A stretch of 64,000 nt of DNA from a virus. The stretch spans positions 1-64,000 of IMG/VR virus record IMGVR_UViG_3300023202_000068. One strand, written 5' to 3'. Position 1 is the stretch's first letter; each line of letters begins with the position of its first letter. The position numbers and the translations under genes were made by a program. The notes below the pieces were generated by a model. That model was not told where the DNA came from and made no database searches. It saw only the letters and a list, made by a program, of their open reading frames with translations. Below are positions 14,656 through 43,877 of the stretch, one piece after another.

Positions 14656-15170
14656 GTAATTACATTCCAAATCGTAGGTGGTTTCGCCTCTAACTGGACT
14701 AGTTGTACAGCTTTTTGGAAGATCATTTTTTGTTGATCTATCCTATCTTCAGCGTCAGACAGGCGTTCCCGTAAAGTTTGAACTTCTGAAACTAAAGCCC
14801 TTAATTGCCTAGCAATTTCAAGTTGATCTTTTTCTCTTTGCACAATACCGTCAACTTGAGGAGCCATTTTTCTTAAAGACTTAAGGAGAATCTGTAAGGT
14901 TTCTTGAACATCTAGAGGTTTATCTGGTAGAGGGTCAACTATATCAGATAATGCCTCAAAAGCATCTTCTAGGGGGAGGTCACGGGACCTAGAAAAGTGA
15001 CGTGCGGCTTGATTTAAGATATCAGTCCGTATACTCTTCATTTCGTCCCAGTCTATTTTAGACTCTGCATACTCTAATTGTAGCTCTTTAATATAATGTC
15101 TGTAGTATTCAGGGTTAAATTTTTCACCCATAATCTCTTTACTTACATTAGAATCGCTCATTAGCTTCAT
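14592..15170 (-). CDS. hypothetical coiled-coil protein upstream of terminase large subunit
   Basis: ORF; position would also fit a small terminase subunit. Confidence 0.5.
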   Translation of the reverse strand: MKLMSDSNVSKEIMGEKFNPEYYRHYIKELQLEYAESKIDWDEMKSIRTDILNQAARHFSRSRDLPLEDAFEALSDIVDPLPDKPLDVQETLQILLKSLRKMAPQVDGIVQREKDQLEIARQLRALVSEVQTLRERLSDAEDRIDQQKMIFQKAVQLVQLEAKPPTIWNVITCTLISLKTSLLNSLGFSSKN

Positions 15171-16917
15171 TCCTTATGTTAGGTGCATTGTCGATTGATC
15201 TTTGAAAGTCCATCTGATCTCTAAACTCTTGATTTTCTAACTCGCTATCTCTAGGAAAAGCTACGATACCTCCAAGCGTACCCATCACTGAAGCAATTGA
15301 TACTGCATTCTTAAGAGCTTGTTCTACAGCTTTTGTGGCATCAAGTAGACCTAGTTTCTTGGCATCTCCGAACTCTCCATTTTCGACATCGTAGACTACC
15401 TTGCGGTCAGCCACCATTCTTTGGAGAATTTCGTTAACCTCGTCTTGGTTGTAGCCAGCATTGTCGAGTAGTTTAAAGAAAGGGTAAAACAGTGATGGTC
15501 CAATAATGTCTGACACTACGGCGTCATCCCCGTGCTTTTCCTGTAAATGAAGGGCTAGGTTGATTAGCATTCTACAACCACCAGGAAGACATCCGTCTGT
15601 AATTGCCGCTCTAACAGCGCAAACCGCATCTTCTGCTCTATCTGCTTTTTCCTTCAATTCACCGTTTGAAGAACCATAAATCTGTAATTTAGCGATACCC
15701 CTAGTTAACTTACCTAGACGTTCCTCTATGAGTTGCTTTTCAATCTTTGACTCTGATTGTTTTAGTAAAGTTTTCAAGTCTTCAGCTCTTACTTCAATAT
15801 TAGTAGGGTCAGAGTCGCCTACGATGGTAGTTCTAAACCTGTAAATCTCTATCTTCTCCATACCATCACCAAAGTCATTTTCCGTAAATTCAGACAAAGG
15901 ATTGGTCATGTCGAATATCTTAGCCCCAGTAAAAGCAGACAAGTCCATTAAGAAGTGGAGCTGCCCATTAACCATAGGAGTCATAGGTGTTGCCAAAGGC
16001 ACTACGTTAATAGTGTTGGGGTTACTGAAATTGAAGGCAAAGTTGGTTAACACCGTATCTGTAAACTTATGGGCTACAATTACCACATTCTTATAGTCTG
16101 AGTTTCCAGAAACATACTGTTCACCGATTGCAGACAGTATTTGTTGAACCTGGACAGGGTCGTTAATTGTACCATCAAATAGTATAAAAAGTGGTTTTTC
16201 TAAAATACAACGCTGATGCGCCTGGTCGTTAATAAAGGCTGAGTGAAACTTGCCGATAGATTCTTCATATCCTTTTTCGATAGGAAAACCCTCTACAAGC
16301 TCGACGTTGTAGCCAGAAGGACCTGACAACTCTTGAATAGTAACGTGAGAAGAGCTTCCATACCCCACTTCTTCAAAGGCACTTATTACTGCCTTAGCCA
16401 TTTCATCATCACCATTTGCTGAAATCTTAGCTACCTTCTCTAGGAGCTTCATATTCTTTTGTGTAATCTTTATAGATGACTTTTTAATTTCAGGGACAAT
16501 GTCCTCTTTTAAGATACGAGAGATTAGTCTCGTAATCTTCTGTGGACTATACTTTTTGTTGTTTTTGCAAAACTCAAAAATATTCTTAATTAAGGCAGAG
16601 GATATGATAGTCGCTGTGGTAGTTCCATCTCCAGCTTCGTTAACCGTCTGAACCGCTGCATCCCTTGTCTGCTCGATAATTAAATGCTCGTAGGCATTTT
16701 GAGACCCAAGAGATCTGAAAATAGTTACTCCGTCTTTAGTGTTTTTATTTGGAATCCCTGGTAACTCAGATTCGATAATCACGTTACGCCCACCAGGACC
16801 AAGAGATGAGCCTACTATACGCTCAATCTTGTTCATAGTTTTTACGACAACTCTTTCTAAGTTATCGACATCACTAGAAAACATTTTTGCTGGTGATTTG
16901 ACTTTTTTTACCGCCAT
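15148..16917 (-). CDS. groEL: GroEL-like chaperonin
   Basis: SLGPGGRNV, TKDGVTI, AGDGTTTAT, ISANGD, EDAVCAVRAA, LPGG; AAGGAG RBS before ATG 16917. Confidence 0.96.
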   Translation of the reverse strand: MAVKKVKSPAKMFSSDVDNLERVVVKTMNKIERIVGSSLGPGGRNVIIESELPGIPNKNTKDGVTIFRSLGSQNAYEHLIIEQTRDAAVQTVNEAGDGTTTATIISSALIKNIFEFCKNNKKYSPQKITRLISRILKEDIVPEIKKSSIKITQKNMKLLEKVAKISANGDDEMAKAVISAFEEVGYGSSSHVTIQELSGPSGYNVELVEGFPIEKGYEESIGKFHSAFINDQAHQRCILEKPLFILFDGTINDPVQVQQILSAIGEQYVSGNSDYKNVVIVAHKFTDTVLTNFAFNFSNPNTINVVPLATPMTPMVNGQLHFLMDLSAFTGAKIFDMTNPLSEFTENDFGDGMEKIEIYRFRTTIVGDSDPTNIEVRAEDLKTLLKQSESKIEKQLIEERLGKLTRGIAKLQIYGSSNGELKEKADRAEDAVCAVRAAITDGCLPGGCRMLINLALHLQEKHGDDAVVSDIIGPSLFYPFFKLLDNAGYNQDEVNEILQRMVADRKVVYDVENGEFGDAKKLGLLDATKAVEQALKNAVSIASVMGTLGGIVAFPRDSELENQEFRDQMDFQRSIDNAPNIRNEANERF

Positions 16918-16953
16918 TGCAACTCCTTCTTGTTCCAGTAACATATACCACAA

Positions 16954-20373: not shown

Positions 20374-21132
20374 TTAAACTAGTAAATGCTTAATGGTTTC
20401 AAGTTTAGCGTTGTCTAGATAGTACTGATTGATCTTTTCTTTATCAGACTTTTCTAGAGTTCCCTCACGAATTTTTGAAGAAAGTTTAGCAGAGATTTCA
20501 GATTTAGTAAGTTTTTCAACAGCTTCCTCTTTCTTCTCTTCCTTGATTTCCTCTTCAGACTTAGCAATGTACTCAATGCCAGTGTAGGCTTTTCTCTTAG
20601 GAGCAGCGCCTTTCTTAACATAGTCGGTCAATGCGGTCGTTAGATGTTCAAGTGATTTCTTCAACTCTTCGTTTTCCTTCTTTACAGCTTCTACTTCTGA
20701 TTTAAGAAGATCAGAAGACTCGTCTTTAACTTCTACTTCAGCAGCTTTGTCTTCAGACTTAGCCATTTTAGTTTCAGCTTGTTCTTCTACTATTTCTTCA
20801 GAAGATTCGACATCTAGGGCTTTTTGGATAGAAGCAAGGTGTGCTTCAGCTTCATTTTTGGACATTGAAGCGTACATTTTATCCATTTCTGCGATATCTT
20901 CTTGGTCATAGTCGAAGTCCGTTACGATTTCGTCTTCGTTCTTTTGAACTTCTGTTTCAGAAGCTTGAAGCTCTTCTTGCTTTTCAGGCTCAGTAACTTC
21001 TTCAGCTACTTCTTCTGATTTGGCAAGTACTTCTTCATTTTGGGCTTCTGACTTAGCAAGGTGCTCAGCGAACTGAGTCTCTACTTCACTAATCAGAGCA
21101 GCCATGTCTTGTTCAGAATATTTCATGTGCAA
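20374..21132 (-). CDS. capsid scaffold protein
   Basis: Acidic coiled coil directly upstream of MCP with many xxKS(E) motifs. Confidence 0.75.
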   Translation of the reverse strand: MHMKYSEQDMAALISEVETQFAEHLAKSEAQNEEVLAKSEEVAEEVTEPEKQEELQASETEVQKNEDEIVTDFDYDQEDIAEMDKMYASMSKNEAEAHLASIQKALDVESSEEIVEEQAETKMAKSEDKAAEVEVKDESSDLLKSEVEAVKKENEELKKSLEHLTTALTDYVKKGAAPKRKAYTGIEYIAKSEEEIKEEKKEEAVEKLTKSEISAKLSSKIREGTLEKSDKEKINQYYLDNAKLETIKHLLV

Positions 21133-22327: not shown

Positions 22328-24985
22328 ATGTCTGAAGAAAAAGAAATAAATGGAACTTTCATTGACGGTATAGCTGCCTCTGAACACCTTGATAGCTCTG
22401 GTGAAAGAATTAGGGTTGAAGGTATTGATATATCAAGCCTTACTAAGGACGGAGTCCTAAACATGGAACACCAAAGTAAGGAAGCTTCTGCAATTGTAGG
22501 TAAGATACTAAAAGCTAAAAAAATATTAAAAGAATCTGATTGTGAGACTGATAGACATAGGTATTTTTGGAATAAAATTAAAATACCATATCTATATATT
22601 ATGGGTGAGCTATTCGATGCTGATGGACACCAGGCAGCAAAAGATATTGCAGCCATGCTTAAGTACGACAAAAGAAAAAAGCATGAAGATAAAGAAACTA
22701 AGAAACTTATAAACTTTTCCATTGAAGGTTCACGCCTTGAGAAAAAAGGTGCGGAGATATTAAAATCCATAGCTCGTAAGGTATCTGTAACTATTACACC
22801 TTGCAATAAAGTGTGCGAAGCAGAATTACTACTTCCCGATCAAATTGTTAACAATGGTAAATTGAAGAAGTTTGGTCAGCACGAACAGAACTTTAGCATG
22901 ATTCAGGACCTTATGTCTAAAAAAGAAGAGCACTTTGCGTCCTGTGAGCCTATGGAAAAGGCAAATTGGGGTGAAATGGGCATTAACGCTACTATCAAGA
23001 ATGAGCTTCCAAAACCCTCAATCACCAATGAAGTCGGTGACATATCTAAGCCTAACAAGGGCTATGGTGCTATTAAAGATGCAACACCGAAGCCTCTAAA
23101 GCCTAATTATGGCAAGGTTATAGTTAAAAGTAAAAAGAAAAAAGAAAAGAAAAAGCCTGAGAAGCCTATGGAAAAGCGCGAGTTTTTTAGAAGAGTAGGT
23201 AATCGCTGGAATCAAATGAAGCAAAGACGCGCTATTGACCAAACTGCTAGAAAGATGCAGAACGAAAGAGAGTCACAAGGTATAGCTTTTGATCCAGATC
23301 AAACAGCTATGGCAAGCCCTAATAAGACTACCCTTAGAGCTGGAAAAAGACCGGCACCTCCGACCCAAATCGAAAGAGATTCTATTTTTGCAAAACCATC
23401 TACACCACTAGGTCAGTTCTCACCTAAATACGCTAAAGATTCAAAAGAATCTTCAGATCAAAAAGAAAAAAGAATTGGAGCAATTGATCAAGCTGTAACA
23501 AGGCAGACGAATACTCTGAATGATATGAGAGATCGAAAAAGAGCTATGATTTCTGGCTCAGCAAATGCCGATACCGTAGCTATAGACGGTAATCCTAGTG
23601 TTAAAAAAGCACTTACTGCAGGTTCTGCTGTAGGAGCACCCTCTACACTAACAGGTGGTGCTGCTTTAGGTAAGATGGCTACATCAATGGTTAACGAATC
23701 TGTCGTAACACCTTCAAAGGCTGGCTCATTTACTAAAGAAGAAAAGAAGAAGAAGAAAAAGAAGGCGCTTAAAGAAATGTCTGATGAAGCTTTTAATAAC
23801 TTTGAGAAGAAAGAAGAGCTTTTAGACTTCCTAGTCGATAAATTACCTAACAATTCTGCAGAAGAAATTATGGCGCTAGCTAAGACTGTAGCTTTTACAT
23901 CTATTAAGAAGAAAGAGTTAATGCTTGCAGACTTAATGAAGGCTAGTAAAAACGTGCGAGAGCAAAGAAAGAAAGTTTTTGGTAGCAAGTCTCAGCCTGG
24001 TAAGGGCTCTAAAATGCGAGACAAGCATATGGAAACAATTGGTATGTTTGCCGATAGATTTCTAGGTCTTCAGTTAAACCCTTCTGGTGGAAAGATTGAT
24101 GAAGAGACTGGTGGTCGCAGAAGTGATAAGCCTAAGGTTGGAGTAGACAAACCCGACTGGAGATCTGGTCAACTTGAAACCCAATGGAATCCTGAGGCTG
24201 CAGTTCATGAAATGGCTCATTTGATGTTATTACCACAAGGTATTGGTCTAGAAGATGGTCAAAGACTTATGGACCAACAATATAAAGACGTGCAGCGTGA
24301 CTACGGATATATGAAGCAAAAAGAATCAAGACATGAAGTACAACCAATGGCTGCGGAACAAATTATACGTAGAATGATGGGACTTCCAGCTTCTCAGGTA
24401 GCTAAGCAAGTTAAACCAGACGACCCAGAAAGAGTAGCTGTAGAAGACGGTAAAACCCCAATCGCACAACGAGTACAAAGAGGTAAGACTAGGCAGGGAG
24501 ATGCTAAGTATGTTGATCTTCTTAGGCTTTCTCAAAACTTGACTCCAGAAAACAGAAAAACACTTACGAGAAGACTTAGTGGACAGGAAGTTTTTCACCC
24601 AGAAAAGGGTTGGCACAATGCCGAGACTTCTGATGCAAAAATCAACACACGCGCTGAAGAAGAAAAAATGGACAAAGCAGAGGTCAAGGTTGAGGAAATG
24701 CAAATTGACCTGATGAAGGATAAAAAAAAGAAGAAAAAGCCTTTTAAGGGTTACAACTCTAAGAAACACGCCAAGACTGGTGGAATGAGCGACAAGGCTA
24801 GAGAAAAATACAACCGAGAAAACAATGCTGATTTAAAGAGACCTGTAACTTCCGATAACCCCAAGGGTAAAGCTAAAAAACGTAAAAAATCTTTTTGTGC
24901 TAGAATGAAGGGAAACAAAGGCCCCACCTCTAAAGACGGCGAGTTGACACCAAAAGGTGCAGCTTTAAAAAGGTGGAACTGCTAA
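22328..24985 (+). CDS. prohead protease fused to extra domains (zincin-like HEMAH domain, C-terminal basic SFCARM domain)
   Basis: IDGIAASEHLDSSGE...NMEH...FSIEG...VSVTITPCN (HK97/herpes-type protease pattern); AVHEMAH; RKKSFCARMKG...ALKRWNC. Confidence 0.82.
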   Translation: MSEEKEINGTFIDGIAASEHLDSSGERIRVEGIDISSLTKDGVLNMEHQSKEASAIVGKILKAKKILKESDCETDRHRYFWNKIKIPYLYIMGELFDADGHQAAKDIAAMLKYDKRKKHEDKETKKLINFSIEGSRLEKKGAEILKSIARKVSVTITPCNKVCEAELLLPDQIVNNGKLKKFGQHEQNFSMIQDLMSKKEEHFASCEPMEKANWGEMGINATIKNELPKPSITNEVGDISKPNKGYGAIKDATPKPLKPNYGKVIVKSKKKKEKKKPEKPMEKREFFRRVGNRWNQMKQRRAIDQTARKMQNERESQGIAFDPDQTAMASPNKTTLRAGKRPAPPTQIERDSIFAKPSTPLGQFSPKYAKDSKESSDQKEKRIGAIDQAVTRQTNTLNDMRDRKRAMISGSANADTVAIDGNPSVKKALTAGSAVGAPSTLTGGAALGKMATSMVNESVVTPSKAGSFTKEEKKKKKKKALKEMSDEAFNNFEKKEELLDFLVDKLPNNSAEEIMALAKTVAFTSIKKKELMLADLMKASKNVREQRKKVFGSKSQPGKGSKMRDKHMETIGMFADRFLGLQLNPSGGKIDEETGGRRSDKPKVGVDKPDWRSGQLETQWNPEAAVHEMAHLMLLPQGIGLEDGQRLMDQQYKDVQRDYGYMKQKESRHEVQPMAAEQIIRRMMGLPASQVAKQVKPDDPERVAVEDGKTPIAQRVQRGKTRQGDAKYVDLLRLSQNLTPENRKTLTRRLSGQEVFHPEKGWHNAETSDAKINTRAEEEKMDKAEVKVEEMQIDLMKDKKKKKKPFKGYNSKKHAKTGGMSDKAREKYNRENNADLKRPVTSDNPKGKAKKRKKSFCARMKGNKGPTSKDGELTPKGAALKRWNC

Positions 24986-28858: not shown

Positions 28859-31800
28859 ATGTATAAGAAAACGTGGCGAATCTTAGCAAAATCAGAAAAC
28901 AACTCAGTACTTGGTAGAAGACCTCACTTTATCTTTAGTGTTGAGGAGCCTCGCTACGAGCAAAAGCTAAAAATGGACCACGATAAAGCTGTAAATTTTT
29001 TACGTCAAAAAGGCTATAAAGTAGAAGAGATGGGTGGGCGATACGGAGGTCTAGACGAGCGAAGTATTGTGGTTCACGACGTACCAGAAGAGTCGATTGG
29101 AAAACTTCATCAATTTGCTAAAGACTTAGGGCAAGAATCTAGTATACACTCAGACGGCAGTAGTCACTCTATGTTGTATCACGGCGGTGAAAACGCCGGA
29201 ATGCACGTTCGAGGTCAAGGTACTAACTTTCATAAAAACCCACCTGAGGATTACTTCTCTACATTATCGGATGGAACTATTTTCACTCACAACTTTAACA
29301 TGGACGAATGGCATCCTAGTGAAACTAACGGTGTAAAAAAATCTGAAGATGTCTTGATGAAGGCACCTATAATGGGTGAGATAGATCCAGACGATGAAGA
29401 TTGGCACTATGCCAATAGTGTTGGACACGTCCTCAATCCTTCTGGCGGTTTTAGCTACAGCAATAAGGCTACAGAAAAAATGAAGGATAGTTTATTTCAC
29501 CACGTGATCGAAAGACACTATCAAGACTCTCAAGAACCAGGTGGTACTAGAAAATTTTTTGACCACATATATACTACAGATGAAGAGGGTGAGGACCCTA
29601 TAGCAAACCTATCTATACAACGCACGTCTAAGGGAAAGCATAGGGTAAATCATTCAATTGTAGAGCCTTCACATAGAGGTAGGGGCTTTGGCTCCATGAT
29701 GTACCAAAGAGCCCTAGAGCACCACGGGGATTTAGAGTCCGACGAATCTGTTAGTCCCGAAGCACATCGCGTTTGGGAAAAAATGTCTAAGAAGCCTAAC
29801 GTACAAGGTAGGCTTGGTGAGTATCCTGGCCCTAGTAGTGATAGACATGCTTTTAAATTTATAAAAAAATCTGAAGATGATGACTCTAGATACTTAGAGC
29901 ACTACTCAAGGCACAAAGATTTAGCACACATAGATCCAGACCATACTGGTTCTGGCGTAGACAGGACTCAGCGAGCTGCCGCCAATAGGCAAAGTAAATT
30001 TAGCTTTTACTACCCTAATAACTACGAGAGTCCAGAGCCTTTTGTAACAAATCAAGCCCAATCAAAGTACAAAGTAAAGTTAGACCCAAATCACAAGGTC
30101 TTTGACGCAAAAGAGCACGGTAGCGATATAGTAAATCAAAGTAAAAACGCTAGTGGTGCTTTAGATATAGATGCTTTTGTACAAAATCTAAAGACTGCAG
30201 GCTACCATGGTTTTAAATCAAGACCTCAAGGTGTTGAAATGGTGGCTATGTTTGATAAGCTACCAGTTTACAGTGAAGAGCCAGTACAGCCTTTTAAGGT
30301 TAAGAAATCTGAAATAGAAAAAGGCGTTAAAACTCCTTCTAAGTTTATGGGTTTAAAGCGCCTAAAGCAAATTAAGCAAGACCACAATATAGGGGCTGGG
30401 GGAAATGAGTACTCTGAGGGTGAGTTAAAAGACGCCATAGTTCAAAGAAAAATCTCAGATGCTGAAAGAACAGTTAGAGAAGCTAAAAGAAGAGAAAAAG
30501 AACTTGCCTCTCAACATGAGGGTGGAGGAGCTTTACCACCTCCATTTGTGTTTAAAAAATCTGAAAGTCTTGAAAAAGGTGCAATGCAACGTAAGTTTAA
30601 GTTTAGACCTCAGGATGATGTAGGCGAAGATGAAGCTGAAAATGTTGATCTTTGGCAGCAAGATTCTTTTGAAGACGGTCGAAAAAAAATGGGCAATATG
30701 CATCCAAACGCAAAAATGAGAGCTTTAAATAAGTTGGCGGCTAAAACTAAAATGAGAACAGATAAGGATGGCAAAAGACATTTCTTACTACATCGAGGTG
30801 TCGGCGCTTCAGAGGCACTAAAAACTTATCGTAAAAAAGGTGCTTTTATTAAAGAAATAAATAATCCCGATTTCTCCTCTTGGACTTACGATAAAAAATT
30901 TGCCGATAATTTTGGAGCAGACTACGGGGGAGGCGCTCAATCTGCGTGGATACATGAGGATAACATTACACACATGCCTAATGCTTACGGCGATGTAAGT
31001 CACGGCGGAGCTGGTGAAAACAAAATGCACGGTGAGGGAGAGGTTATAGTAGGACCTCACAAATCAAGAATGGCTAGTCACAATGAGGTAAATACAGAAA
31101 TTCACCCAAACACTCTAGATGAGGCAATTAGTGCACGTGGAAAAATGGGAGGCTCGTGGCTTGGCAGGGAACAGTCTGATAAGTCTTTTAGAGAAAGAGT
31201 TGTTAAGCCGAGATTGAAAAACAAAAAGCTAGCTTCTTCAGAACACGATGTACCTGATCTTCTTAAGAATGAATATAAACCACCTAAGATCAACCTAAAC
31301 CCAGAACATGGTAAGAAGATCGCAGACGCATACCATAATATGAAGCACGACCCAGACCATCCTGATGTTCAAGAAGCCTATGGTGCTCTGATTAATGAAA
31401 CAAAGAAACAATATCAAGATATTTTGGATTCAGGTATAAAACTTACCCCTATTAAGCCTGGACAGGAAAATCCATACAAGAACTCAAAAGAATTGCATCA
31501 CGACATAGAGAATAACAAGCACATGTATTATTTTCCAACAGATCAGGGGTTTGGCTCTTCTGACAACGAATACTCTAACCACCCAATGCTTCAACCAACA
31601 GAGCTTGAGATTGGTGGGCAAAAACTTCTTGCAAATGACTTATTTCGAATAGTTCATGATATAAACGGACATCACCACGGTGGTAGAACTACGTTTGGAC
31701 CCAAAGGTGAGCACAAAGCCTTTCTCCATCACAAGACTATGTATTCACCAATGGCACAGCGTGCACTTGCATCAGAAACACTTGGTCAAAACTCTTGGGT

Positions 31801-33655
31801 AAACTTTGGACCTCATGGTGAGGCTAACAGAAGAGATCCAGCCAACACAATATATGCAGATCAAAAAGCCGGATTACTTCCTAACGATATACTAGAAGGT
31901 AATTGGCACGCAGACGAAACACCTCAAGCCTCTAGTCCTATGGATCTTGTAAACAAGCCAATTAAGAAGAGCGAGAAAAAGTTTAAATACCAACCTAAGA
32001 AAGGTGATACAGTACACTTATCTCACGGTATCACAGATAGTAAGCGCGGTGGAGAAAAAGTACATACTGATAAAAAATACGTAGTACATAACGAATCCAA
32101 AGGTGGATATAGACAATCACACTGGGTAGTTCCTGAAGGTGAAAAAGATACAAGTAAGGGTAGGTACCACAGAAGTGACAGACTCCACCCTGTAAAGAAA
32201 TTTGAAGTACAGCTTAAAAAAGACGTTGGAGCCCTAAAGTTTCCAGGTTTAAAAGACATTACTACAAGACCAGATCAAGAGATTAACTCAATTAGTACTG
32301 ATCGGCAAGCAGACATTGCTACTAAGCAAATCGTTGAGAGAGAGAAAAGAGTTAGACCTGAAGCTGCAGAGGCTGTAGAACAAGAAGCCGGAAGAGCTGT
32401 TAGAAGCTTAGTTCAGAAAAAACCTAAAAATATATTAGGTAAGCCCAAGAAAGCTAAGGGAACATTTGAAGGTATAGAGGGTGATAGGCAAGCGGCTAAG
32501 TCTCAGATTAGAGAGGCCAAGGCAAGACAGGAAGATAAAGATTTTTCAGAGCCAGGGGCTCAAGGCTTCTTAGTAGAGCAGCGAGTGCCAGATCAGAAAG
32601 ACTTAGGCTTTGTCCCTGAGAGACACGCAGGCGGTCCAGTACAGCAACACGAAGGTCATCATCACCTGTTTAGCGAAGTATCTAGAAAATACGGTCCAAG
32701 TGCTAGGTACAAACTTGTTAATCACTTATTGAAAGAGTTACCTGGTCAAGATATTGAAGACATGAAAGATCATTTAAGGTTTACTTATGGATATGACCAT
32801 AAAGATAGTAACTTTAATGAAGAAGTTTTGAACCACGCTAGGGATATACTTGTAAGCCCTAAATCAAGAGAGTCTTACTTAAAGTTTTTAGAAGAAAAAC
32901 ATGGTCCTGCAAACACCCATGACAATAGAAGAACAATGGCTAGGGTAAAATCTGGTTGGAGAAAAGTACTTAATAGTAGTAAAAAAGTTACACCTGAAAC
33001 TTTTCAGGCAGAGGTGATTCCTTTTAAGAGTAAGTTAACGGCATCAGAAAAGGCGGTTATTGATATGCACAAAGCTACAAGCTTTAGATCAGCTATAATG
33101 GCTGGACTTGCAACTGGAGCAATGGCGACTAGTAGTAACGTCCAAGCAGGTATGACACAACCAGAGACACCAGTACAAAACACAATCACTCATGACCAGC
33201 AAGTGCCTGAAAATAACAAAAACCACATACTGAATGCAATACAGTTCGTAGAATCATCTGGTGGTAAAAACACCAATCATGAACGACTCCCTCAAGACTC
33301 CATCCATAGAGGAGAAAGGGCTTTTGGAAAGTATGGTTTAACACCCTTATTGATTAGAGAAACTATAGGTCAACACAAAGACTTATCTAGAAAATACAAT
33401 TCATTGCAAAATTTGCAAGGCGATCAGTTTCACGAACAAATGCAGCAACACCCAGAACTAGAAGAAATTATAGCATCACGTCATTACGATAGGCTTTCTA
33501 GAAAGTTTGGTCACGATCATCAAAAAATTGGCTATGCATGGTTGAACGGAATCACTGGTACTATGAAGGCACTAAAGCGTGGCGACGATATATCGGACCA
33601 CTGGCATGTGCAAAAAATTACAAACGCATACAATAAAGCAAAATCTGGTAAGTGA
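28859..33655 (+). CDS. ~1598-aa multidomain virion polyprotein (SAM-lyase-like, GNAT, two ART-like, two zincin-like, transglycosylase-like domains)
   Basis: AGGA RBS before ATG 28859; catalytic motifs separated by KKSE-type linkers (see findings). Confidence 0.85.
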   Translation: MYKKTWRILAKSENNSVLGRRPHFIFSVEEPRYEQKLKMDHDKAVNFLRQKGYKVEEMGGRYGGLDERSIVVHDVPEESIGKLHQFAKDLGQESSIHSDGSSHSMLYHGGENAGMHVRGQGTNFHKNPPEDYFSTLSDGTIFTHNFNMDEWHPSETNGVKKSEDVLMKAPIMGEIDPDDEDWHYANSVGHVLNPSGGFSYSNKATEKMKDSLFHHVIERHYQDSQEPGGTRKFFDHIYTTDEEGEDPIANLSIQRTSKGKHRVNHSIVEPSHRGRGFGSMMYQRALEHHGDLESDESVSPEAHRVWEKMSKKPNVQGRLGEYPGPSSDRHAFKFIKKSEDDDSRYLEHYSRHKDLAHIDPDHTGSGVDRTQRAAANRQSKFSFYYPNNYESPEPFVTNQAQSKYKVKLDPNHKVFDAKEHGSDIVNQSKNASGALDIDAFVQNLKTAGYHGFKSRPQGVEMVAMFDKLPVYSEEPVQPFKVKKSEIEKGVKTPSKFMGLKRLKQIKQDHNIGAGGNEYSEGELKDAIVQRKISDAERTVREAKRREKELASQHEGGGALPPPFVFKKSESLEKGAMQRKFKFRPQDDVGEDEAENVDLWQQDSFEDGRKKMGNMHPNAKMRALNKLAAKTKMRTDKDGKRHFLLHRGVGASEALKTYRKKGAFIKEINNPDFSSWTYDKKFADNFGADYGGGAQSAWIHEDNITHMPNAYGDVSHGGAGENKMHGEGEVIVGPHKSRMASHNEVNTEIHPNTLDEAISARGKMGGSWLGREQSDKSFRERVVKPRLKNKKLASSEHDVPDLLKNEYKPPKINLNPEHGKKIADAYHNMKHDPDHPDVQEAYGALINETKKQYQDILDSGIKLTPIKPGQENPYKNSKELHHDIENNKHMYYFPTDQGFGSSDNEYSNHPMLQPTELEIGGQKLLANDLFRIVHDINGHHHGGRTTFGPKGEHKAFLHHKTMYSPMAQRALASETLGQNSWVNFGPHGEANRRDPANTIYADQKAGLLPNDILEGNWHADETPQASSPMDLVNKPIKKSEKKFKYQPKKGDTVHLSHGITDSKRGGEKVHTDKKYVVHNESKGGYRQSHWVVPEGEKDTSKGRYHRSDRLHPVKKFEVQLKKDVGALKFPGLKDITTRPDQEINSISTDRQADIATKQIVEREKRVRPEAAEAVEQEAGRAVRSLVQKKPKNILGKPKKAKGTFEGIEGDRQAAKSQIREAKARQEDKDFSEPGAQGFLVEQRVPDQKDLGFVPERHAGGPVQQHEGHHHLFSEVSRKYGPSARYKLVNHLLKELPGQDIEDMKDHLRFTYGYDHKDSNFNEEVLNHARDILVSPKSRESYLKFLEEKHGPANTHDNRRTMARVKSGWRKVLNSSKKVTPETFQAEVIPFKSKLTASEKAVIDMHKATSFRSAIMAGLATGAMATSSNVQAGMTQPETPVQNTITHDQQVPENNKNHILNAIQFVESSGGKNTNHERLPQDSIHRGERAFGKYGLTPLLIRETIGQHKDLSRKYNSLQNLQGDQFHEQMQQHPELEEIIASRHYDRLSRKFGHDHQKIGYAWLNGITGTMKALKRGDDISDHWHVQKITNAYNKAKSGK

Positions 33656-33981: not shown

Positions 33982-34506
33982 ATGGATATCAAGCCAGGTG
34001 AAGTCGAATCTGTAAAAATTATAGGTAACCTACACGGTAATGACGTTAAGATGGTCAAGACCCACGGTGGGTTTCACGTAGCAGTTGGTAAAAAGAAGAA
34101 AAACGGTAATAAAACCGAAGCCTTAGCCGCTGGATCACATCAAGCTATTGTTGCTCACCAAATTGCTAAAGAGTTTGGAACAGACTATCAACCAGCCATT
34201 ATGAAGTCTGAAGCCGATAGGCTTGAAGATGTCATGAATAAGTCTGAGCTTTTATCAAGCGAAGCGTTGGCTAAAGGTATTGAACTTTTTACACTTGAAA
34301 AAAACAACCATTACGACTTTGTCGTATACAAAAGAGGTATGACCCTAGGTAAGTATCAAGCTGAACTAGAGGGTAACACACTAAAGCTCACAAAGTATGA
34401 GTTCAACACGGCTCCTGATATGGATATAGCTAAGGCTGTGGCTAGAATGATTGAGGACAAGGCTGATGAACTAGGTGTCACTGAGATAGAAAAAGGTTGG
34501 TTGTAA
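33982..34506 (+). CDS. late protein with internal MKSE/NKSE motifs
   Basis: AGGAGG RBS; IMKSEADRLEDVMNKSEL. Confidence 0.7.
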   Translation: MDIKPGEVESVKIIGNLHGNDVKMVKTHGGFHVAVGKKKKNGNKTEALAAGSHQAIVAHQIAKEFGTDYQPAIMKSEADRLEDVMNKSELLSSEALAKGIELFTLEKNNHYDFVVYKRGMTLGKYQAELEGNTLKLTKYEFNTAPDMDIAKAVARMIEDKADELGVTEIEKGWL

Positions 34507-35938: not shown

Positions 35939-36829
35939 ATGTTATCTGCTAAGGATATCAAGGTCGTTCAAAGCATTTTAGGCGATGATATCTTTCAGAC
36001 TCTAGAAAAGTCTGAAATTAGCGGTGGACTATATAAACCTGGAACTAGAACTGCTTTAGATCCAGAAGAAATCAAGATTGCCTTAGAAATTGTTCCTAGA
36101 ACAATTTTGTCTTTTTTGATGGGACAGTTAAAAAATAAAGAGGTTGGTGAAATTTGTAAATGTGACCTTCCTTTCGAACCAGGCGCTATGATGGAGTGCC
36201 ATAAGCTTGGACCAGACAATTATTCTGGTCAAATTATCAAAGACGGTAAAGTTTGTGCAGAGTTTAAGCATAGATCTATACCAGGGGTGGGTTTAATAAT
36301 ACTAACAGCTTTTGAATTATATGATATATCTAACTTAGACCGTAAAAAAGCCTCTGAGTCAGATGAAAAAATAGAAAAACTACAAGACATCATTAATCAA
36401 AAACTGGAGTTACAAAGACTTGTTCAAGACGTAGTCGATAGAAGGATGTCTGAAAGAGCCGCAATAGACTCTTTAATACAGGCACGCTTAGGGGAGCACA
36501 TTGCATCAGTACAAGCACCGACTGAAGAAAAGGAAGAACCAACCATGGAAAAGAAAAGTAAGCTCAAACAATTTCTAGAGAGTCGAGAAGGTAAGAGACA
36601 AGAGTCTGTAGAAATGGAAAAAGGTGAAATTAATTGTCCTGATTGTGGTACGAATATTTACAAAAATGAAAAGAAAAACGAGATTAACCTATGCCTCTGT
36701 TATGGAGAGCATATGAATAAAGGCATTAAGTTTAAAAAATCAGAAGACGGTAGGGTTCAGTTTAAGTTTCCTAAGTCTTTTGACATTGAAAACGTAGAAA
36801 TGCTTTTAGACGCAATTAAGAAACAGTAA
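35939..36829 (+). CDS. late protein with C-terminal zinc finger and KSE motifs
   Basis: LEKSE, MEKGE, FKKSE; CPDC...CLC. Confidence 0.65.
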   Translation: MLSAKDIKVVQSILGDDIFQTLEKSEISGGLYKPGTRTALDPEEIKIALEIVPRTILSFLMGQLKNKEVGEICKCDLPFEPGAMMECHKLGPDNYSGQIIKDGKVCAEFKHRSIPGVGLIILTAFELYDISNLDRKKASESDEKIEKLQDIINQKLELQRLVQDVVDRRMSERAAIDSLIQARLGEHIASVQAPTEEKEEPTMEKKSKLKQFLESREGKRQESVEMEKGEINCPDCGTNIYKNEKKNEINLCLCYGEHMNKGIKFKKSEDGRVQFKFPKSFDIENVEMLLDAIKKQ

Positions 36830-36840
36830 CGGAGATTGAA

Positions 36841-38049
36841 ATGCAAGAAATATATGTAGCTATCAACGGTGACGATGTAGGAAATTCAATAGGTTCCGCT
36901 ATTGCTTCTGACGATAGGGAATCACTTGGCTCTACAACCTCCACTTTAAAAGATATACATTCGCAAATTGACCAGTGGGTTGAGCAGTGCGGTGGTGAAG
37001 TTGTAACTTCTTCAGGAGATGAAGGTATCTATAAGGTACCACATGAGTGTGCTGATCACCTAGAGGATATTCGAAGTGAGTATCAAGAGCACACAGGGCA
37101 CACATTGACTATTGGTGTTGGCCAGAGCATGTCTGAAGCTGCCAAAGCTTTGATCTATGGAAAAATGAACAACAAAGACCAGATTGTAGAGTATGCACCT
37201 GAAATGGACGAAGCTATTTCAAGTGAAACTGGTGAAATGGGCACTCAAGGATACGAGCAGCAAAACGAAGGTAAACTTCCTGCAGAAGAAGAAATGTCTT
37301 ATCAAAAGGAAAATGCTGCTCAGCAAGAAGCTAGTATGGCTGAAGAGCCCGATGAAGACATGGTTGAAGAAGACGGTGAAGGCGAAGCTGATAAAGATGC
37401 CGAAGAGATCATTGAAGAAGCCTCTAATGACCCAGAGCATGAAAAAGACATGACTCCTGAAGAAGAGCGCGAGCATGATGCTGCAGAAAATGAGCTTGAT
37501 GAAATGGATGACGATATCGTTGAAGCCGATGAAGAGGCTAATATGGAAGGTATCGACGGCGAAGCTGGTGAAGAAGACATGCAAGTTGATGAAGATGAGA
37601 ATATGGAAGAAGAACCTGAAGCTGACGAAGGTGATCACGAAGATTTATTAGCCGAAATGGTTCATGCTCATATGTCTGGTGAAGAAGATGAAGAAATGCC
37701 AGAAGAAGAGATGATGGAAGAAGAGGTGCCTGAAGAAATGCCAGAAGAAGAGATGATGGAGGAGGACCAATACAGTGACGAAGAAATTGAAAACTTACGT
37801 GCTGATATTGCTCATTCTTTAAACTCCTTTAAGGCAAATAGAGAAATGATCTTGCAAATGCAACAGGCAAGTCCTGAAATGTACGAGAGCTTAATGGTAA
37901 TGCTAAGATCTATGATCGCTATGGGTAGACATATGGGTTTTGACGCTGAACAGGCTGCTGATGAACAAATGTCTGAAGCACAGGCACAAGAAGAAATGCC
38001 TGAAGCTGCTCCAGAAGGTCAACCAATGGCGATGTCTGAAAAAAAGTAG
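36841..38049 (+). CDS. mCpol/GGDEF-like palm domain plus long acidic tail
   Basis: YVAINGDDVG...GGEVVTSSGDE...TLTIGVGQSMSEAAKALIYGKMNNKD. Confidence 0.7.
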   Translation: MQEIYVAINGDDVGNSIGSAIASDDRESLGSTTSTLKDIHSQIDQWVEQCGGEVVTSSGDEGIYKVPHECADHLEDIRSEYQEHTGHTLTIGVGQSMSEAAKALIYGKMNNKDQIVEYAPEMDEAISSETGEMGTQGYEQQNEGKLPAEEEMSYQKENAAQQEASMAEEPDEDMVEEDGEGEADKDAEEIIEEASNDPEHEKDMTPEEEREHDAAENELDEMDDDIVEADEEANMEGIDGEAGEEDMQVDEDENMEEEPEADEGDHEDLLAEMVHAHMSGEEDEEMPEEEMMEEEVPEEMPEEEMMEEDQYSDEEIENLRADIAHSLNSFKANREMILQMQQASPEMYESLMVMLRSMIAMGRHMGFDAEQAADEQMSEAQAQEEMPEAAPEGQPMAMSEKK

Positions 38050-38090
38050 CAGGGGTAGGTCGTGGACCTAAAGATCCCATGAGCCTACCC
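38040..38090 (+). other. programmed -1 ribosomal frameshift signal
   Basis: In-phase A AAA AAG before TAG, 6-nt spacer, ~13-bp stem; -1 frame open into the 38079 ORF. Confidence 0.75.
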
Positions 38091-38354
38091 GACAAAGCCG
38101 CCAAAAAAATACCTAAAAAGCAAGCTCCAGTTGGTGCACAACGCGGTAATAAGCTTAAAGTATTAGATGGTGACACAGGTAAAGTTAGGTGGAGAAAAGG
38201 TACTAAGGGTTTCTTGAGAGACTATGACGGTGACCCTGTTAGTACAAATTACACGGCTAGGTATTTAAAACCTAAGCCAAAACACAGCCCACATATGGGG
38301 GGAAAGCGCAGACACGATCCACACATGGGTGACCGAGACGGCGCTTATCAATAA
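38079..38354 (+). CDS. basic ORF, probably the -1 frameshift extension of the 36841 gene
   Basis: No clear RBS; in the -1 frame of the upstream gene. Confidence 0.65.
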   Translation: MSLPDKAAKKIPKKQAPVGAQRGNKLKVLDGDTGKVRWRKGTKGFLRDYDGDPVSTNYTARYLKPKPKHSPHMGGKRRHDPHMGDRDGAYQ

Positions 38355-40564: not shown

Positions 40565-41482
40565 ATGAGCAAAAAAGACGATAAATCATACACTGCCCAC
40601 GATGCGGCTCTTGCTGTATTGAAGAAAGCTCAAGAGATGCTCAAGAAAAGCACTCTAGCAAAAGCTAATACTGCTCACGAAGTTGAGGCTGGTGGAGAAC
40701 CAAAATCTGAAGGCTCTGAAGCCCCTGAATACTTGGCAAACGCTGATATTGAAAGCACCTCAGGTACTGACAGAAATGAAGCCCCTGACCAAATCAAACA
40801 GGCTCATGTTGACACTGATGACGCTGAAAAAGAAAAGAAGCGTAAAAAATACGATGGCGCTATGAAAGCCAGCGACGATGATGAAGAAAAAGAAGAAGAG
40901 ATCGAAGAAGATCAAGAAGATTATGGTTCTGAAGAAGAAGACAAAGACGATGATCAAGAAGATTATCACCAAAAAGGTAAAGACGTACCTACAGACAAGG
41001 GTACTAAGCACTTTGGTAAATCTGAAGATGTAGAGGCAGCCGCTAAAGCAGTAATGGGTGATAAAGATCTAGACGATGTTTTGGATAAAATGCCTAAAGA
41101 CAAGCGAGACGATGTTTTGCGCAAACTTCGTGAAATGAAGAAAATGGGCAAATCAAAAGGTAGCATGATGGCTGCATGTAAGTCAGAACTAGCTAAGTGC
41201 GGAGAAATGGAACGCGGCAAGAAAATGAAAAAATCTGAATCTAACCATAAAGACGGTATTAGTAAAGTCTACGGTTTTCTTGCTAAAAGTTATGCTAAAA
41301 AAGCTGACGAAAAAAGAATGGCAACACCTGAGGAAATGCAATCTTTAGAAGAGGCCAAAAAAGAAAAGAAAAAGAAATTAAAAAAGATGGCTGGGGAAAC
41401 TGCAAAAGCACCAAAAGACATGATGAAGCCACAAAGTAACAGTTCTATGCCCCCTGTTCCAAGCGGAAAGCAAGGATACTAG
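40565..41482 (+). CDS. charged, disordered putative internal head protein with many xxK[S/A] sites
   Basis: LKKS, LAKA, AMKA, FGKSE, MGKS, ACKSE, MKKSE, LAKS. Confidence 0.7.
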   Translation: MSKKDDKSYTAHDAALAVLKKAQEMLKKSTLAKANTAHEVEAGGEPKSEGSEAPEYLANADIESTSGTDRNEAPDQIKQAHVDTDDAEKEKKRKKYDGAMKASDDDEEKEEEIEEDQEDYGSEEEDKDDDQEDYHQKGKDVPTDKGTKHFGKSEDVEAAAKAVMGDKDLDDVLDKMPKDKRDDVLRKLREMKKMGKSKGSMMAACKSELAKCGEMERGKKMKKSESNHKDGISKVYGFLAKSYAKKADEKRMATPEEMQSLEEAKKEKKKKLKKMAGETAKAPKDMMKPQSNSSMPPVPSGKQGY

Positions 41483-41732: not shown

Positions 41733-43877
41733 ATGGCACAAAGAATTAGTACATCGTTTATCAATACTAACAGGCCAGGTGCTTACTTCGATGTTCAAGT
41801 AAAGTCTACTCCTGTAGGTGTTGCAAGCTCAGGTAATATCATAATTATCGGTGAAGCTGCTGGTGGAGCTGCTGTTGCAGGAATCGATTCAGCAGAAGGT
41901 GATTTGCTAAAAGACAACTTTTTCACACCTGATCAGGTTGATAGAGTTGTTGCAAAATATATTAGTGGTCCAATTGTTGATGCTTTTAGAGCACTTTCAT
42001 CTCCTAGCTCTGATGCAAACATTTCTGGTTCTGCAAATAGAATTTACATTGCTAAAACGAACACTGGAACACGAGCCTCTGCGACTATCGCAAGTGCTTA
42101 CGGAACAATTCGAGATAAGAACTACGGAATTGATGGTAATAAATACTCTTTTAGTATTTCTCAGTCAATTGACGAAGAAGCCCCACAGATTACTGGTTCA
42201 GTAATCGCATCTTTTGGAGCGGCACTTGACGGTGACTTCAGAATGAGAATTGACGGTGGTGCTGAAATTACTGTAACAATTGCATCAAGTCCTGCAGATA
42301 TGACAGATCTTCTAACAGAACTTAACGGTGGTGCTTTGCCAGCCGGAGTGACTGCTACAGAGGGCACTGCTGCTGACAGCTTGACGCTAACATACGACGC
42401 AGATGCTGCGGCTAACAGTAAAGGAAGTGGTAAGTCTATCGAGCTTATTGAGGATTCTATTTTAGCTGCCCTTGGACACTCAGAAGGACTTGTAGTTTCT
42501 TCTGCTGAGCCTGAGGTTCAAGTTGATATCGTAAGACAAGACACTGGAATTAACGAGTCTTTCTTGGCTGAAGCTCAAGTTGCATTGAGAATTGGCTACG
42601 AAGGAACAACTGGAACTATAGATATTACAGACTCTAGCTTGACTACTACTGTAACTGGTGGTTCTGGAACTAACTTGAACATTAACTTGTCAGAGTATCC
42701 TTTGATGTCAGACTTGGCTGAGTTTATCAACTCACAAACTGGTTACACTTGTGTAGCTACCCCTGGGGCATCTCAAACTTCTCCTGTATCTCTTGACGAC
42801 GTTACAGGTGTTGGAATTGCTTCAAGTGATGCTGGAATCCTACCTGGTCGAATTAAAATTTCAACTCTTAGGTTTGAACAAGCAATAGGTCAATCTGCAG
42901 TATTAGATTTTATCTTAACTGCCGATGAAGGTCTACCAGAAGTTGCATCTAGTCAGTTTTTGACTGGTGGACAGCGCGGTGGAACTCTAGCTGCTGATTT
43001 TGTTACAGCTTACACAGACCTAGAGGGTATTGATGTAAACTTTGTAATTCCTTTGATCTCAAGAGATGCTTCTGCAGATATTCTTGACGGTCTAACGGAC
43101 TCTAGCTCTACTTATACAATTGCTGCTGTAAACGCTCTTACAAAAAGCCATGTACTTAAAATGTCTACGGCTAAACTTAAGAAGCACAGAACGGCATTTT
43201 GTAGTTTTGACGGTTCATACTCAGATGCAGTTGCTCAGGCTGGTTCACTAGCTAACCAACGTGTGTCGCTTTGTATGCAAAGAACTAGTCAGGTTAACGC
43301 TGTAGGGGCTGTTGTTAACTTTCAACCTTGGCACACCGCATGTATTGCTGCTGGTATGCAGGCTGCTGGTTTTTACAGATCTATCACAAACAAATTTGCA
43401 AACGTAATTAGCTTTAGCGACCCATCAGGTTTTGACTCTGGTAGCCCTGGAGATATTGAATCTGCTCTTGATGCTGGACTTCTTTTTCTTGAAAAAGCAG
43501 TTGTTGGTAACAAGTGGGTTTCCGATCAAACAACTTATGGAATTGACACAAACTTCGTTTACAACTCAGTTCAAGCTATGTATGCTTCTGATCTAGTTTC
43601 ACTTGATCTTGCAGACAGCTTTCAAACTGCCTTTGTTGGTCAGTCTTTGGCTGATGTAGATGCTTCTACTGCCTTGTCTTTCTTGGCTTCTAAAATGGAT
43701 GCATTTAAAAAACAAAAGCTTATAGCTGCTTCTGACGATGCCCCTCTTGGGTTCAAGAATGCTCGTGTAAGAATCAATGGTCCAATTATGGAAGTTGGTG
43801 TAGAAATTAAGCTTGCTACGGCAATCTTATTCATTCCAATTAACATTGAAATCAGTCAAGTACAAAGCGAAGCTTAG
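41733..43877 (+). CDS. contractile tail sheath protein
   Basis: RPGAYFDV, IIIGEAAGG, FLTGG..G, C-terminal ILFIPINIEI; 714 aa upstream of tube. Confidence 0.92.
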   Translation: MAQRISTSFINTNRPGAYFDVQVKSTPVGVASSGNIIIIGEAAGGAAVAGIDSAEGDLLKDNFFTPDQVDRVVAKYISGPIVDAFRALSSPSSDANISGSANRIYIAKTNTGTRASATIASAYGTIRDKNYGIDGNKYSFSISQSIDEEAPQITGSVIASFGAALDGDFRMRIDGGAEITVTIASSPADMTDLLTELNGGALPAGVTATEGTAADSLTLTYDADAAANSKGSGKSIELIEDSILAALGHSEGLVVSSAEPEVQVDIVRQDTGINESFLAEAQVALRIGYEGTTGTIDITDSSLTTTVTGGSGTNLNINLSEYPLMSDLAEFINSQTGYTCVATPGASQTSPVSLDDVTGVGIASSDAGILPGRIKISTLRFEQAIGQSAVLDFILTADEGLPEVASSQFLTGGQRGGTLAADFVTAYTDLEGIDVNFVIPLISRDASADILDGLTDSSSTYTIAAVNALTKSHVLKMSTAKLKKHRTAFCSFDGSYSDAVAQAGSLANQRVSLCMQRTSQVNAVGAVVNFQPWHTACIAAGMQAAGFYRSITNKFANVISFSDPSGFDSGSPGDIESALDAGLLFLEKAVVGNKWVSDQTTYGIDTNFVYNSVQAMYASDLVSLDLADSFQTAFVGQSLADVDASTALSFLASKMDAFKKQKLIAASDDAPLGFKNARVRINGPIMEVGVEIKLATAILFIPINIEISQVQSEA

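Follow-up and report, generated by a model that had tools for sequence, protein, structure and literature searches.

What does a nucleotide cyclase domain of the mCpol (minimal CRISPR polymerase) family do among the late genes of a phage, and is it still a cyclase where the first of its catalytic aspartates is replaced by asparagine? In the searchable literature mCpol figures solely in Panoptes or CARF-linked systems of bacteria, with no mention of phage copies. We analyzed a window of 64,000 nucleotides, positions 1 to 64,000 of an IMG/VR virus record of 153,539 bp (IMGVR_UViG_3300023202_000068) with an estimated completeness of 96%, in which a first-pass annotation, made from the letters of the DNA and its open reading frames, had proposed such a domain. 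That annotation had named three outcomes for the phage protein: synthesis of a decoy or suppressing second messenger, binding of such a messenger, or structural reuse of the fold.

Identity and setting of the palm domain

The open reading frame at 36841..38049 (+) encodes, as its short 0-frame product, a protein of 402 aa with a pI of 4.05, and the palm motifs quoted in the first-pass annotation were present in it. Residues 1-130 (36841..37230, +) were identified as an mCpol palm domain by Pfam, NCBIfam, phmmer against the PDB, AF2 modeling and Foldseek. The Pfam family mCpol (PF18182; cut-off 26.4 bits) matched aa 5-118 over profile positions 1-114 of 114 (57.7 bits; E 1.8e-15) and the NCBIfam model NF033576 matched the domain with 44.5 bits, above its cut-off of 40 bits. 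A phmmer search of the PDB with the single sequence retrieved the Panoptes OptS/mCpol chains 9mnr_A and 9nwn_B (E 1e-8). The AF2 model, for which the input was a 37-sequence alignment, had a pLDDT of 95-98 over aa 1-130, and the top PDB structure found with the modeled palm by Foldseek was KpOptS (9mnr_A; TM 0.89 by target, rmsd 1.5 Å, 116 columns), followed by GGDEF and Cas10 palms. A search of the ESM Atlas was concordant with this identity, with a GdpP-type GGDEF among the matches, and in PADLOC the phage protein matched solely the mCpol part of the CARF-HEPN-mCpol model. PHROGs contained no family for the mCpol protein or for its basic tail. The domain is a true mCpol-family palm, placed at the N-terminal end of a late carrier protein that is conserved, and the mCpol/Cas10/GGDEF-type palm first proposed is confirmed by both profile and structure, with KpOptS as the best palm-fold match in the PDB.

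The Panoptes OptS/mCpol synthases (KpOptS, PDB 9mnr and 9pd0; mCpol, 9nwn; Pfam PF18182) produce 2',3'-c-di-AMP and related dinucleotides (type I) or cA3 (type II). The phage protein shares their domain family by sequence and by fold and keeps the beta-hairpin Asp and the Lys-rich helix. It differs from them, however, in being encoded by a virulent-type phage and not by a bacterial defence operon, and in having its palm fused to ~270 further residues and a frameshift tail. No 2TM-beta (OptE) or CARF-TM effector was found nearby, where the neighbors are virion, neck and tail genes. With the GGDEF diguanylate cyclases and the Cas10 palm the phage domain has in common the RRM-like palm, the G-D-E hairpin and the A..AL..AK..GK helix, but it is much smaller, is without the I-site or sensor domains and is encoded in a late operon.

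The gene is part of a + strand late block that runs from the gene of a polyvalent virion protein to those of the tail sheath (41733..43877) and tube, in line with the structural operon to which it was first assigned. The genes for the major capsid protein (MCP), its acidic neighbor, the portal and the terminase are on the opposite strand, at 9.9-21 kb. Pfam and NCBIfam gave nothing for the immediate neighbors except a borderline SP10_terminator match on o337. Two scans of viral contigs recovered 92 loci, ~65 of them distinct, on contigs of as much as 177 kb, and in these ~65 the mCpol slot was located upstream of the neck and sheath genes. The order o174, o298, (o158), o296, mCpol protein, o253, o337, o78, tail sheath, tube was shared, and it was the same whether the first catalytic position held Asp or Asn (Asp-type and Asn-type hereafter) and in Myxococcus phage Mx1. 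Mx1 was the only one among 50,697 deposited phage genomes to have the gene, in the same slot, and no relative was found in the genomes of 185,579 prokaryote species with alignment A1 as query. In Mx1-like myoviruses of ~150-177 kb the gene belongs to the fixed core. A domain studied only as the guard synthase of Panoptes is here a late gene at the core of a large phage clade that is almost entirely uncultured.

Two minor features of these regions were also recorded. The o253 homologue was inverted relative to the operon in two loci (L011, 11859-12599; L012, 2583-3323), and in the window a GroEL-type chaperonin gene (15148-16953, -; phrog_5725, E 2.5e-88) was located between the terminase and MCP genes.

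The catalytic pocket across the family

In KpOptS, Asp6 and Asp57 are the metal-binding catalytic aspartates and Ser30 and Asn34 read adenine (PMC12657218, PMC12657230), with Asp6 required for full activity (PMC12657218). The phmmer alignment to KpOptS placed Asn9 of the window protein (codon 36865..36867, +) at the position of Asp6, Asp60 at Asp57, Thr33 at Ser30 and Lys37 at Asn34. The first metal-binding Asp, at the end of strand 1, is Asn in the window protein, as the first-pass annotation had read it, and Asp in a sister Asp-type phage clade. The second catalytic acidic residue is present on the beta-hairpin as the invariant Asp60 of a Gly59-Asp60-Glu61 motif (37015..37023, +), preceded by Ser58 where the Asp-type relatives have Gly. 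The window protein therefore differs from OptS at Asp6 (Asn), at the Gly before GDE (Ser) and at Asn34 (Lys), and the Asp-type phage relatives keep the equivalents of Asp6, Ser30 and Asn34. Across 37 close homologues (35-73% identity) N9, D11, G59-D60-E61, K102, K108 and K112 were invariant, and D11, D60, E61, K102, K108 and K112 were also kept among wider relatives.

To determine the extent of the family, 1.84 billion cluster representatives (clusters at 50% identity) were searched exhaustively; 766 clusters matched at E<=1e-3, and 509 of these at E<=1e-10. Nearly all of the best 150 of the 766 clusters were proteins of 350-960 aa, and a word-indexed search for short stand-alone relatives returned just one fragment. 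Among the domains of the best matches, position 9 was Asn in 86 and Asp in 78. Asp-type domains combine GGDE with Ser33 and often with Asn37, which makes up a complete OptS-like site, and Asn-type domains combine SGDE with Thr/Ser33 and mostly with Lys37; most of the family keeps the complete OptS-like site (DxD, GGDE, Ser/Asn). On a tree of 162 tips the Asn/Asp label required 2 changes compared to ~54 for shuffled labels, and a single origin of Asn9 is also compatible with this tree. The tree was without a bacterial mCpol outgroup and its polarity rests on OptS, Cas10 and GGDEF, with Asp taken as ancestral because all three have it. Both Asn codons, AAT and AAC, were used at position 9 among the relatives, each one transition away from Asp. 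The label count on the tree, the use of both codons and the clade-wide distribution mark the Asp-to-Asn change as ancient, fixed and selected, and alongside it came co-varying Gly58-to-Ser and Asn37-to-Lys changes in the pocket.

These data bear directly on whether the palm of the window lineage is a decaying remnant with no function, as the loss of the catalytic Asp might suggest and as the full decay tolerated in Mx1 (see below) would allow. Asn9 and the surrounding pocket were, however, invariant in the 37 homologues and in the 86 domains from 50%-identity clusters, both synonymous Asn codons were in use and the structure model was very confident. As the homologues share 35-73% identity and are not near-identical strains, this conservation effectively refutes decay, which we regard as very improbable indeed.

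A third state of the pocket was found in Mx1. Its homologue, WNM70340.1, is without any of the catalytic motifs, with SID in place of N/DGD, LGAV in place of S/GGDE and no Lys helix. A fold-level match remains, and the C-terminal helical block (E 2.6e-12) and the basic tail are retained together with a KSE site, all of these in a single frame. The retention of the gene without any catalytic motif suggests that a conserved core role survives without the pocket, which may be wholly dispensable for it. The family data suggest that all three of the outcomes named in the first-pass annotation are represented as states in different lineages (intact, fixed Asn and the motif-less Mx1). The fixed Asn subclade, set against its Asp-type relatives and the motif-less Mx1 form, is new, and the three natural states (intact, fixed Asp-to-Asn, motif-less) offer a set of comparisons with which to ask whether phages synthesize, sense or sequester immune nucleotides.

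For the window protein, the role of Asp6 in OptS points to a loss of catalysis. Ligation of Mg2+ by Asn occurs in other enzymes (e.g., protein kinases), so catalysis with Asn9 would still be possible. Degenerate GGDEF domains act as nucleotide-binding or regulatory modules (receptors), which is a precedent for altered palms being kept for ligand binding. On its residues, the palm here probably binds nucleotides or works unlike the known enzyme. We propose that the ancestral phage protein would have had an OptS-like, ATP-using cyclase site, as the family comparison suggests, and that in the window lineage the metal-binding Asp would have become Asn once and stayed fixed together with Gly58-to-Ser and Asn37-to-Lys, the remainder of the pocket being invariant after the change. 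The most likely consequence would be a domain that binds an NTP or a cyclic oligonucleotide without the standard two-metal cyclisation, or that cyclises with altered chemistry or specificity.

A different reading is that the protein is, despite Asn9, an active cyclase used as a counter-defence, making a cyclic di- or tri-nucleotide in the late cytoplasm or after delivery by the virion, and thereby keeping Panoptes-type effectors off or jamming other nucleotide-sensing defences. The strong purifying selection on the pocket is in its favor, as are the complete OptS-like site with the adenine-recognition Ser/Asn in most family members and the shuffling of the palm domain with cargo-like modules. 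OptS products hold the effector off (PMC12657218, PMC12657230) and a phage counter-measure was expected by the Panoptes authors (PMC12657218), for which phage mCpol is a concrete candidate. In the window protein, however, the Asp6 that OptS needs for full activity is Asn and the base-recognition Asn is Lys, and Mx1 retains the gene without the catalytic residues. The gene also has a strictly syntenic place in the late core and contains a frameshift, whereas anti-defence genes are typically early and patchy, and the lack of a relative in the prokaryote genomes searched means that a recent capture from a defence system is not evident. Searches of the phage for Tad2-like and ring-nuclease families were negative and Pfam found no 2H esterase in its polyvalent protein, and so nothing among these would create a need for a synthase. 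Weighing these points, we consider an active counter-defence cyclase unlikely. A "writer plus eraser" pairing was considered as well and is unsupported here, with none of the three kinds of protein found.

Several relatives displayed variations in architecture around the palm. Three of them (P0068, P0097, P0113) carry two tandem mCpol domains per chain, the second copy being degenerate in some, and these tandem copies may be built-in dimers. In the linker of the Asp-type alignment, repeated CxxC...DCxxC motifs were present in the spacers of many relatives, suggesting zinc knuckles, and are missing from the window protein. In P0083 the palm is immediately followed, at aa 148-197, by a DUF5661 domain (PF18905, E 1e-9). 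The N-terminal extensions of some relatives were considered as fusions with the upstream o296, and this reading was rejected.

Spacer, helical block and frameshift tail

Beyond the palm, aa 131-312 (37231..37776, +) form an acidic disordered spacer with 83 D+E and 5 K+R, which together with the low pI of the whole protein matches the acidic remainder that the first-pass annotation had described. The spacer is of variable length among relatives, and disorder in the AF2 model extended over aa ~134-310. It is followed by a conserved C-terminal block of three helices (aa 313-385; 37777..37995, +), defined by an HMM and by the AF2 model (pLDDT 82-92), and modeled in the related locus L012 at pLDDT 89-97. 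In addition to Mx1, the HMM of this block matched the proteins of 141 of the 167 palm-domain stretches. Pfam and NCBIfam returned nothing for the helical block or the tail, and a Foldseek search with the models of both gave nothing significant in the PDB or BFVD.

The 0 frame ends in TCT GAA AAA AAG TAG, with a slippery heptamer A_AAA_AAG in register with this frame (38040..38046, +) directly before the TAG stop. A predicted RNA hairpin that would act as a frameshift stimulator (38053..38090, +; -21.2 kcal/mol, z -3.4) begins 6 nt past the heptamer, and the -1 frame continues as a basic tail of 104 codons (38040..38354, +; pI 10.4) that includes a 91-aa ORF at 38079..38354. The same heptamer and a homologous -1 frame tail were found in eight of the nine close loci, the tail being fused in frame in L012, and the heptamer was also present in many wider relatives. 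Of the loci of the wider family, 24 have the tail in the -1 frame, 10 have it fused and 3 have it in the +1 frame, with no tail detected in 32; natural in-frame fusions occur in L012, Mx1 and eight Asp-type loci. Alignment of the tails revealed a shared motif (LPxKxTKH...PxGA...GxxKVxDxxTG...W), and the tail was modeled as a short beta-hairpin within an extended chain. The heptamer in register, the downstream structure and the conserved open -1 ORF are together the features of a programmed -1 frameshift, and ribosomal frameshifting is predicted to give two forms of the protein, with the basic arm on a fraction of the molecules. In three Asp-type loci (L018, L023, L025) a weak tail-like match was observed in the +1 frame, with no slippery heptamer found there, and this +1 frame tail may represent an independent gene or recoding of another kind.

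The heptamer is identical to A_AAA_AAG, the frameshift heptamer of E. coli dnaX. Like dnaX, T7 10A/10B and lambda G/GT, the phage gene would use a -1 frameshift to make two C-terminal forms, here with a heptamer, a 6-nt spacer, a stable hairpin and a conserved -1 ORF. It differs from them in belonging to a gene family not known for this mechanism before, and in adding a basic arm to an acidic enzyme-like protein.

Ratios set by frameshifting are typical of structural and assembly proteins, as in T7 10A/10B and lambda G/GT, and would suit a purely morphogenetic protein, an assembly chaperone whose palm serves only for oligomerisation or as a scaffold-like module, whose spacer and frameshift set the stoichiometry, and in which the conservation of the pocket reflects fold stability or a structural nucleotide cofactor. 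The retention of the fold, helices, KSE site and tail by Mx1 in the absence of catalytic motifs agrees with such a role, as do the fixed position between the virion and neck genes and the oligomeric state of OptS, in which sites are shared between protomers (PMC12657218). The invariance of Asp11, Gly-Asp-Glu 59-61 and the three Lys across hundreds of <50%-identity clusters is, however, hard to explain by folding alone, and no catalytic or base-recognition residue of an active enzyme is missing from the Asp-type members. A purely morphogenetic role is in our judgment doubtful, if by no means negligible.

Head association and proposed role

The tripeptide KSE, for the most part within a hydrophobic-x-K-S-E pattern, occurred 19 times in the 16,009 aa of window proteins and was confined to five late proteins (20374-21132, -; 28970-33655, +; 33982-34506, +; 35939-36829, +; 40565-41482, +), with none in the other ~13,400 aa examined. 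Six of the occurrences were in the acidic protein adjacent to the MCP, five in the polyvalent protein, four in o305 and two each in o174 and o296. On this distribution KSE is a candidate head-protease site. In the mCpol family it is missing from the palm and helical parts and is ~3.5-fold enriched after the helices (27 observed compared to ~7.6 expected), where it was present in only 17 of the 69 family loci. The window mCpol protein is itself without an exact KSE and has only MAMSE, at its end. KSE was also located directly before the palm domain in two relatives (P0135 and P0150), and the N-terminal module of P0135 has 56% identity to aa 772-972 of the window phage's polyvalent protein. In a further relative (P0077) LPKSE was repeated six times.

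The distribution of KSE and the sharing of modules with the polyvalent protein point to loading into the head, and they would fit a head component that is processed by a protease and has modules in common with the polyvalent protein. Phage polyvalent proteins were reportedly described by Iyer et al. in 2017, and head-packaged cargo enzymes include MuF-fused toxins, T4 Alt and internal proteins. Like these, the mCpol protein is encoded by a gene of the late virion block, and in a relative its palm is fused to a polyvalent-protein module, with KSE linkers at the module borders. Unlike them, it is strongly acidic and strictly syntenic, where cargo modules are usually swappable, and its packaging and cleavage are putative. 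The acidic composition is also like that of the scaffold candidate beside the MCP, which is in keeping with a morphogenetic role. The mCpol protein was considered as a scaffold in its own right, and this was weakened by the separate, better candidate that already adjoins the MCP at 20374..21132.

The explanation that we prefer, and hold with about even confidence, is that the protein is a carrier or cargo protein of the head module, produced in two lengths, whose mCpol domain derives from an active phage cyclase and in the window phage binds nucleotide or has an altered activity. More weakly, the protein would be a prohead-associated, protease-processed component loaded alongside the polyvalent protein, with the helical block and the frameshift tail serving for anchoring or assembly and the palm domain as its functional head. 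The purpose of a nucleotide-related activity may be either tampering with immune signals or an assembly cue, and a role in tampering with immune nucleotides is speculation, nothing having pointed specifically to a decoy or an anti-Panoptes function. We think quite unlikely the combined reading that the heads of Mx1-like phages are loaded with the mCpol module and deliver it with the DNA, the Asp-type proteins making the "all is well" nucleotides of Panoptes in answer to guard systems and the Asn-type acting as a non-catalytic sponge or sensor evolved from the cyclase. A strongly acidic protein more likely leaves the head, like a scaffold, than travels with the DNA; were the basic tail to be cleaved away, it could remain with the DNA. 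No virion proteomics of Mx1 was found in the literature, and as this phage is cultured such proteomics is possible now.

Searches with the prohead protease families S77, S78 and S49 and with PHROGs recognized no classical prohead protease, which weighs against a processed head component. The only recognizable protease was a ClpP-family protein (71.3 bits) encoded outside the window at 126987-127478 (-), far from the head genes. Within the window, an 885-aa protein (22328-24985, +) combines a C-terminal DUF6321 domain (E 2.6e-12) with an N-terminal region that weakly matches a head maturation protease PHROG (E 1e-4).
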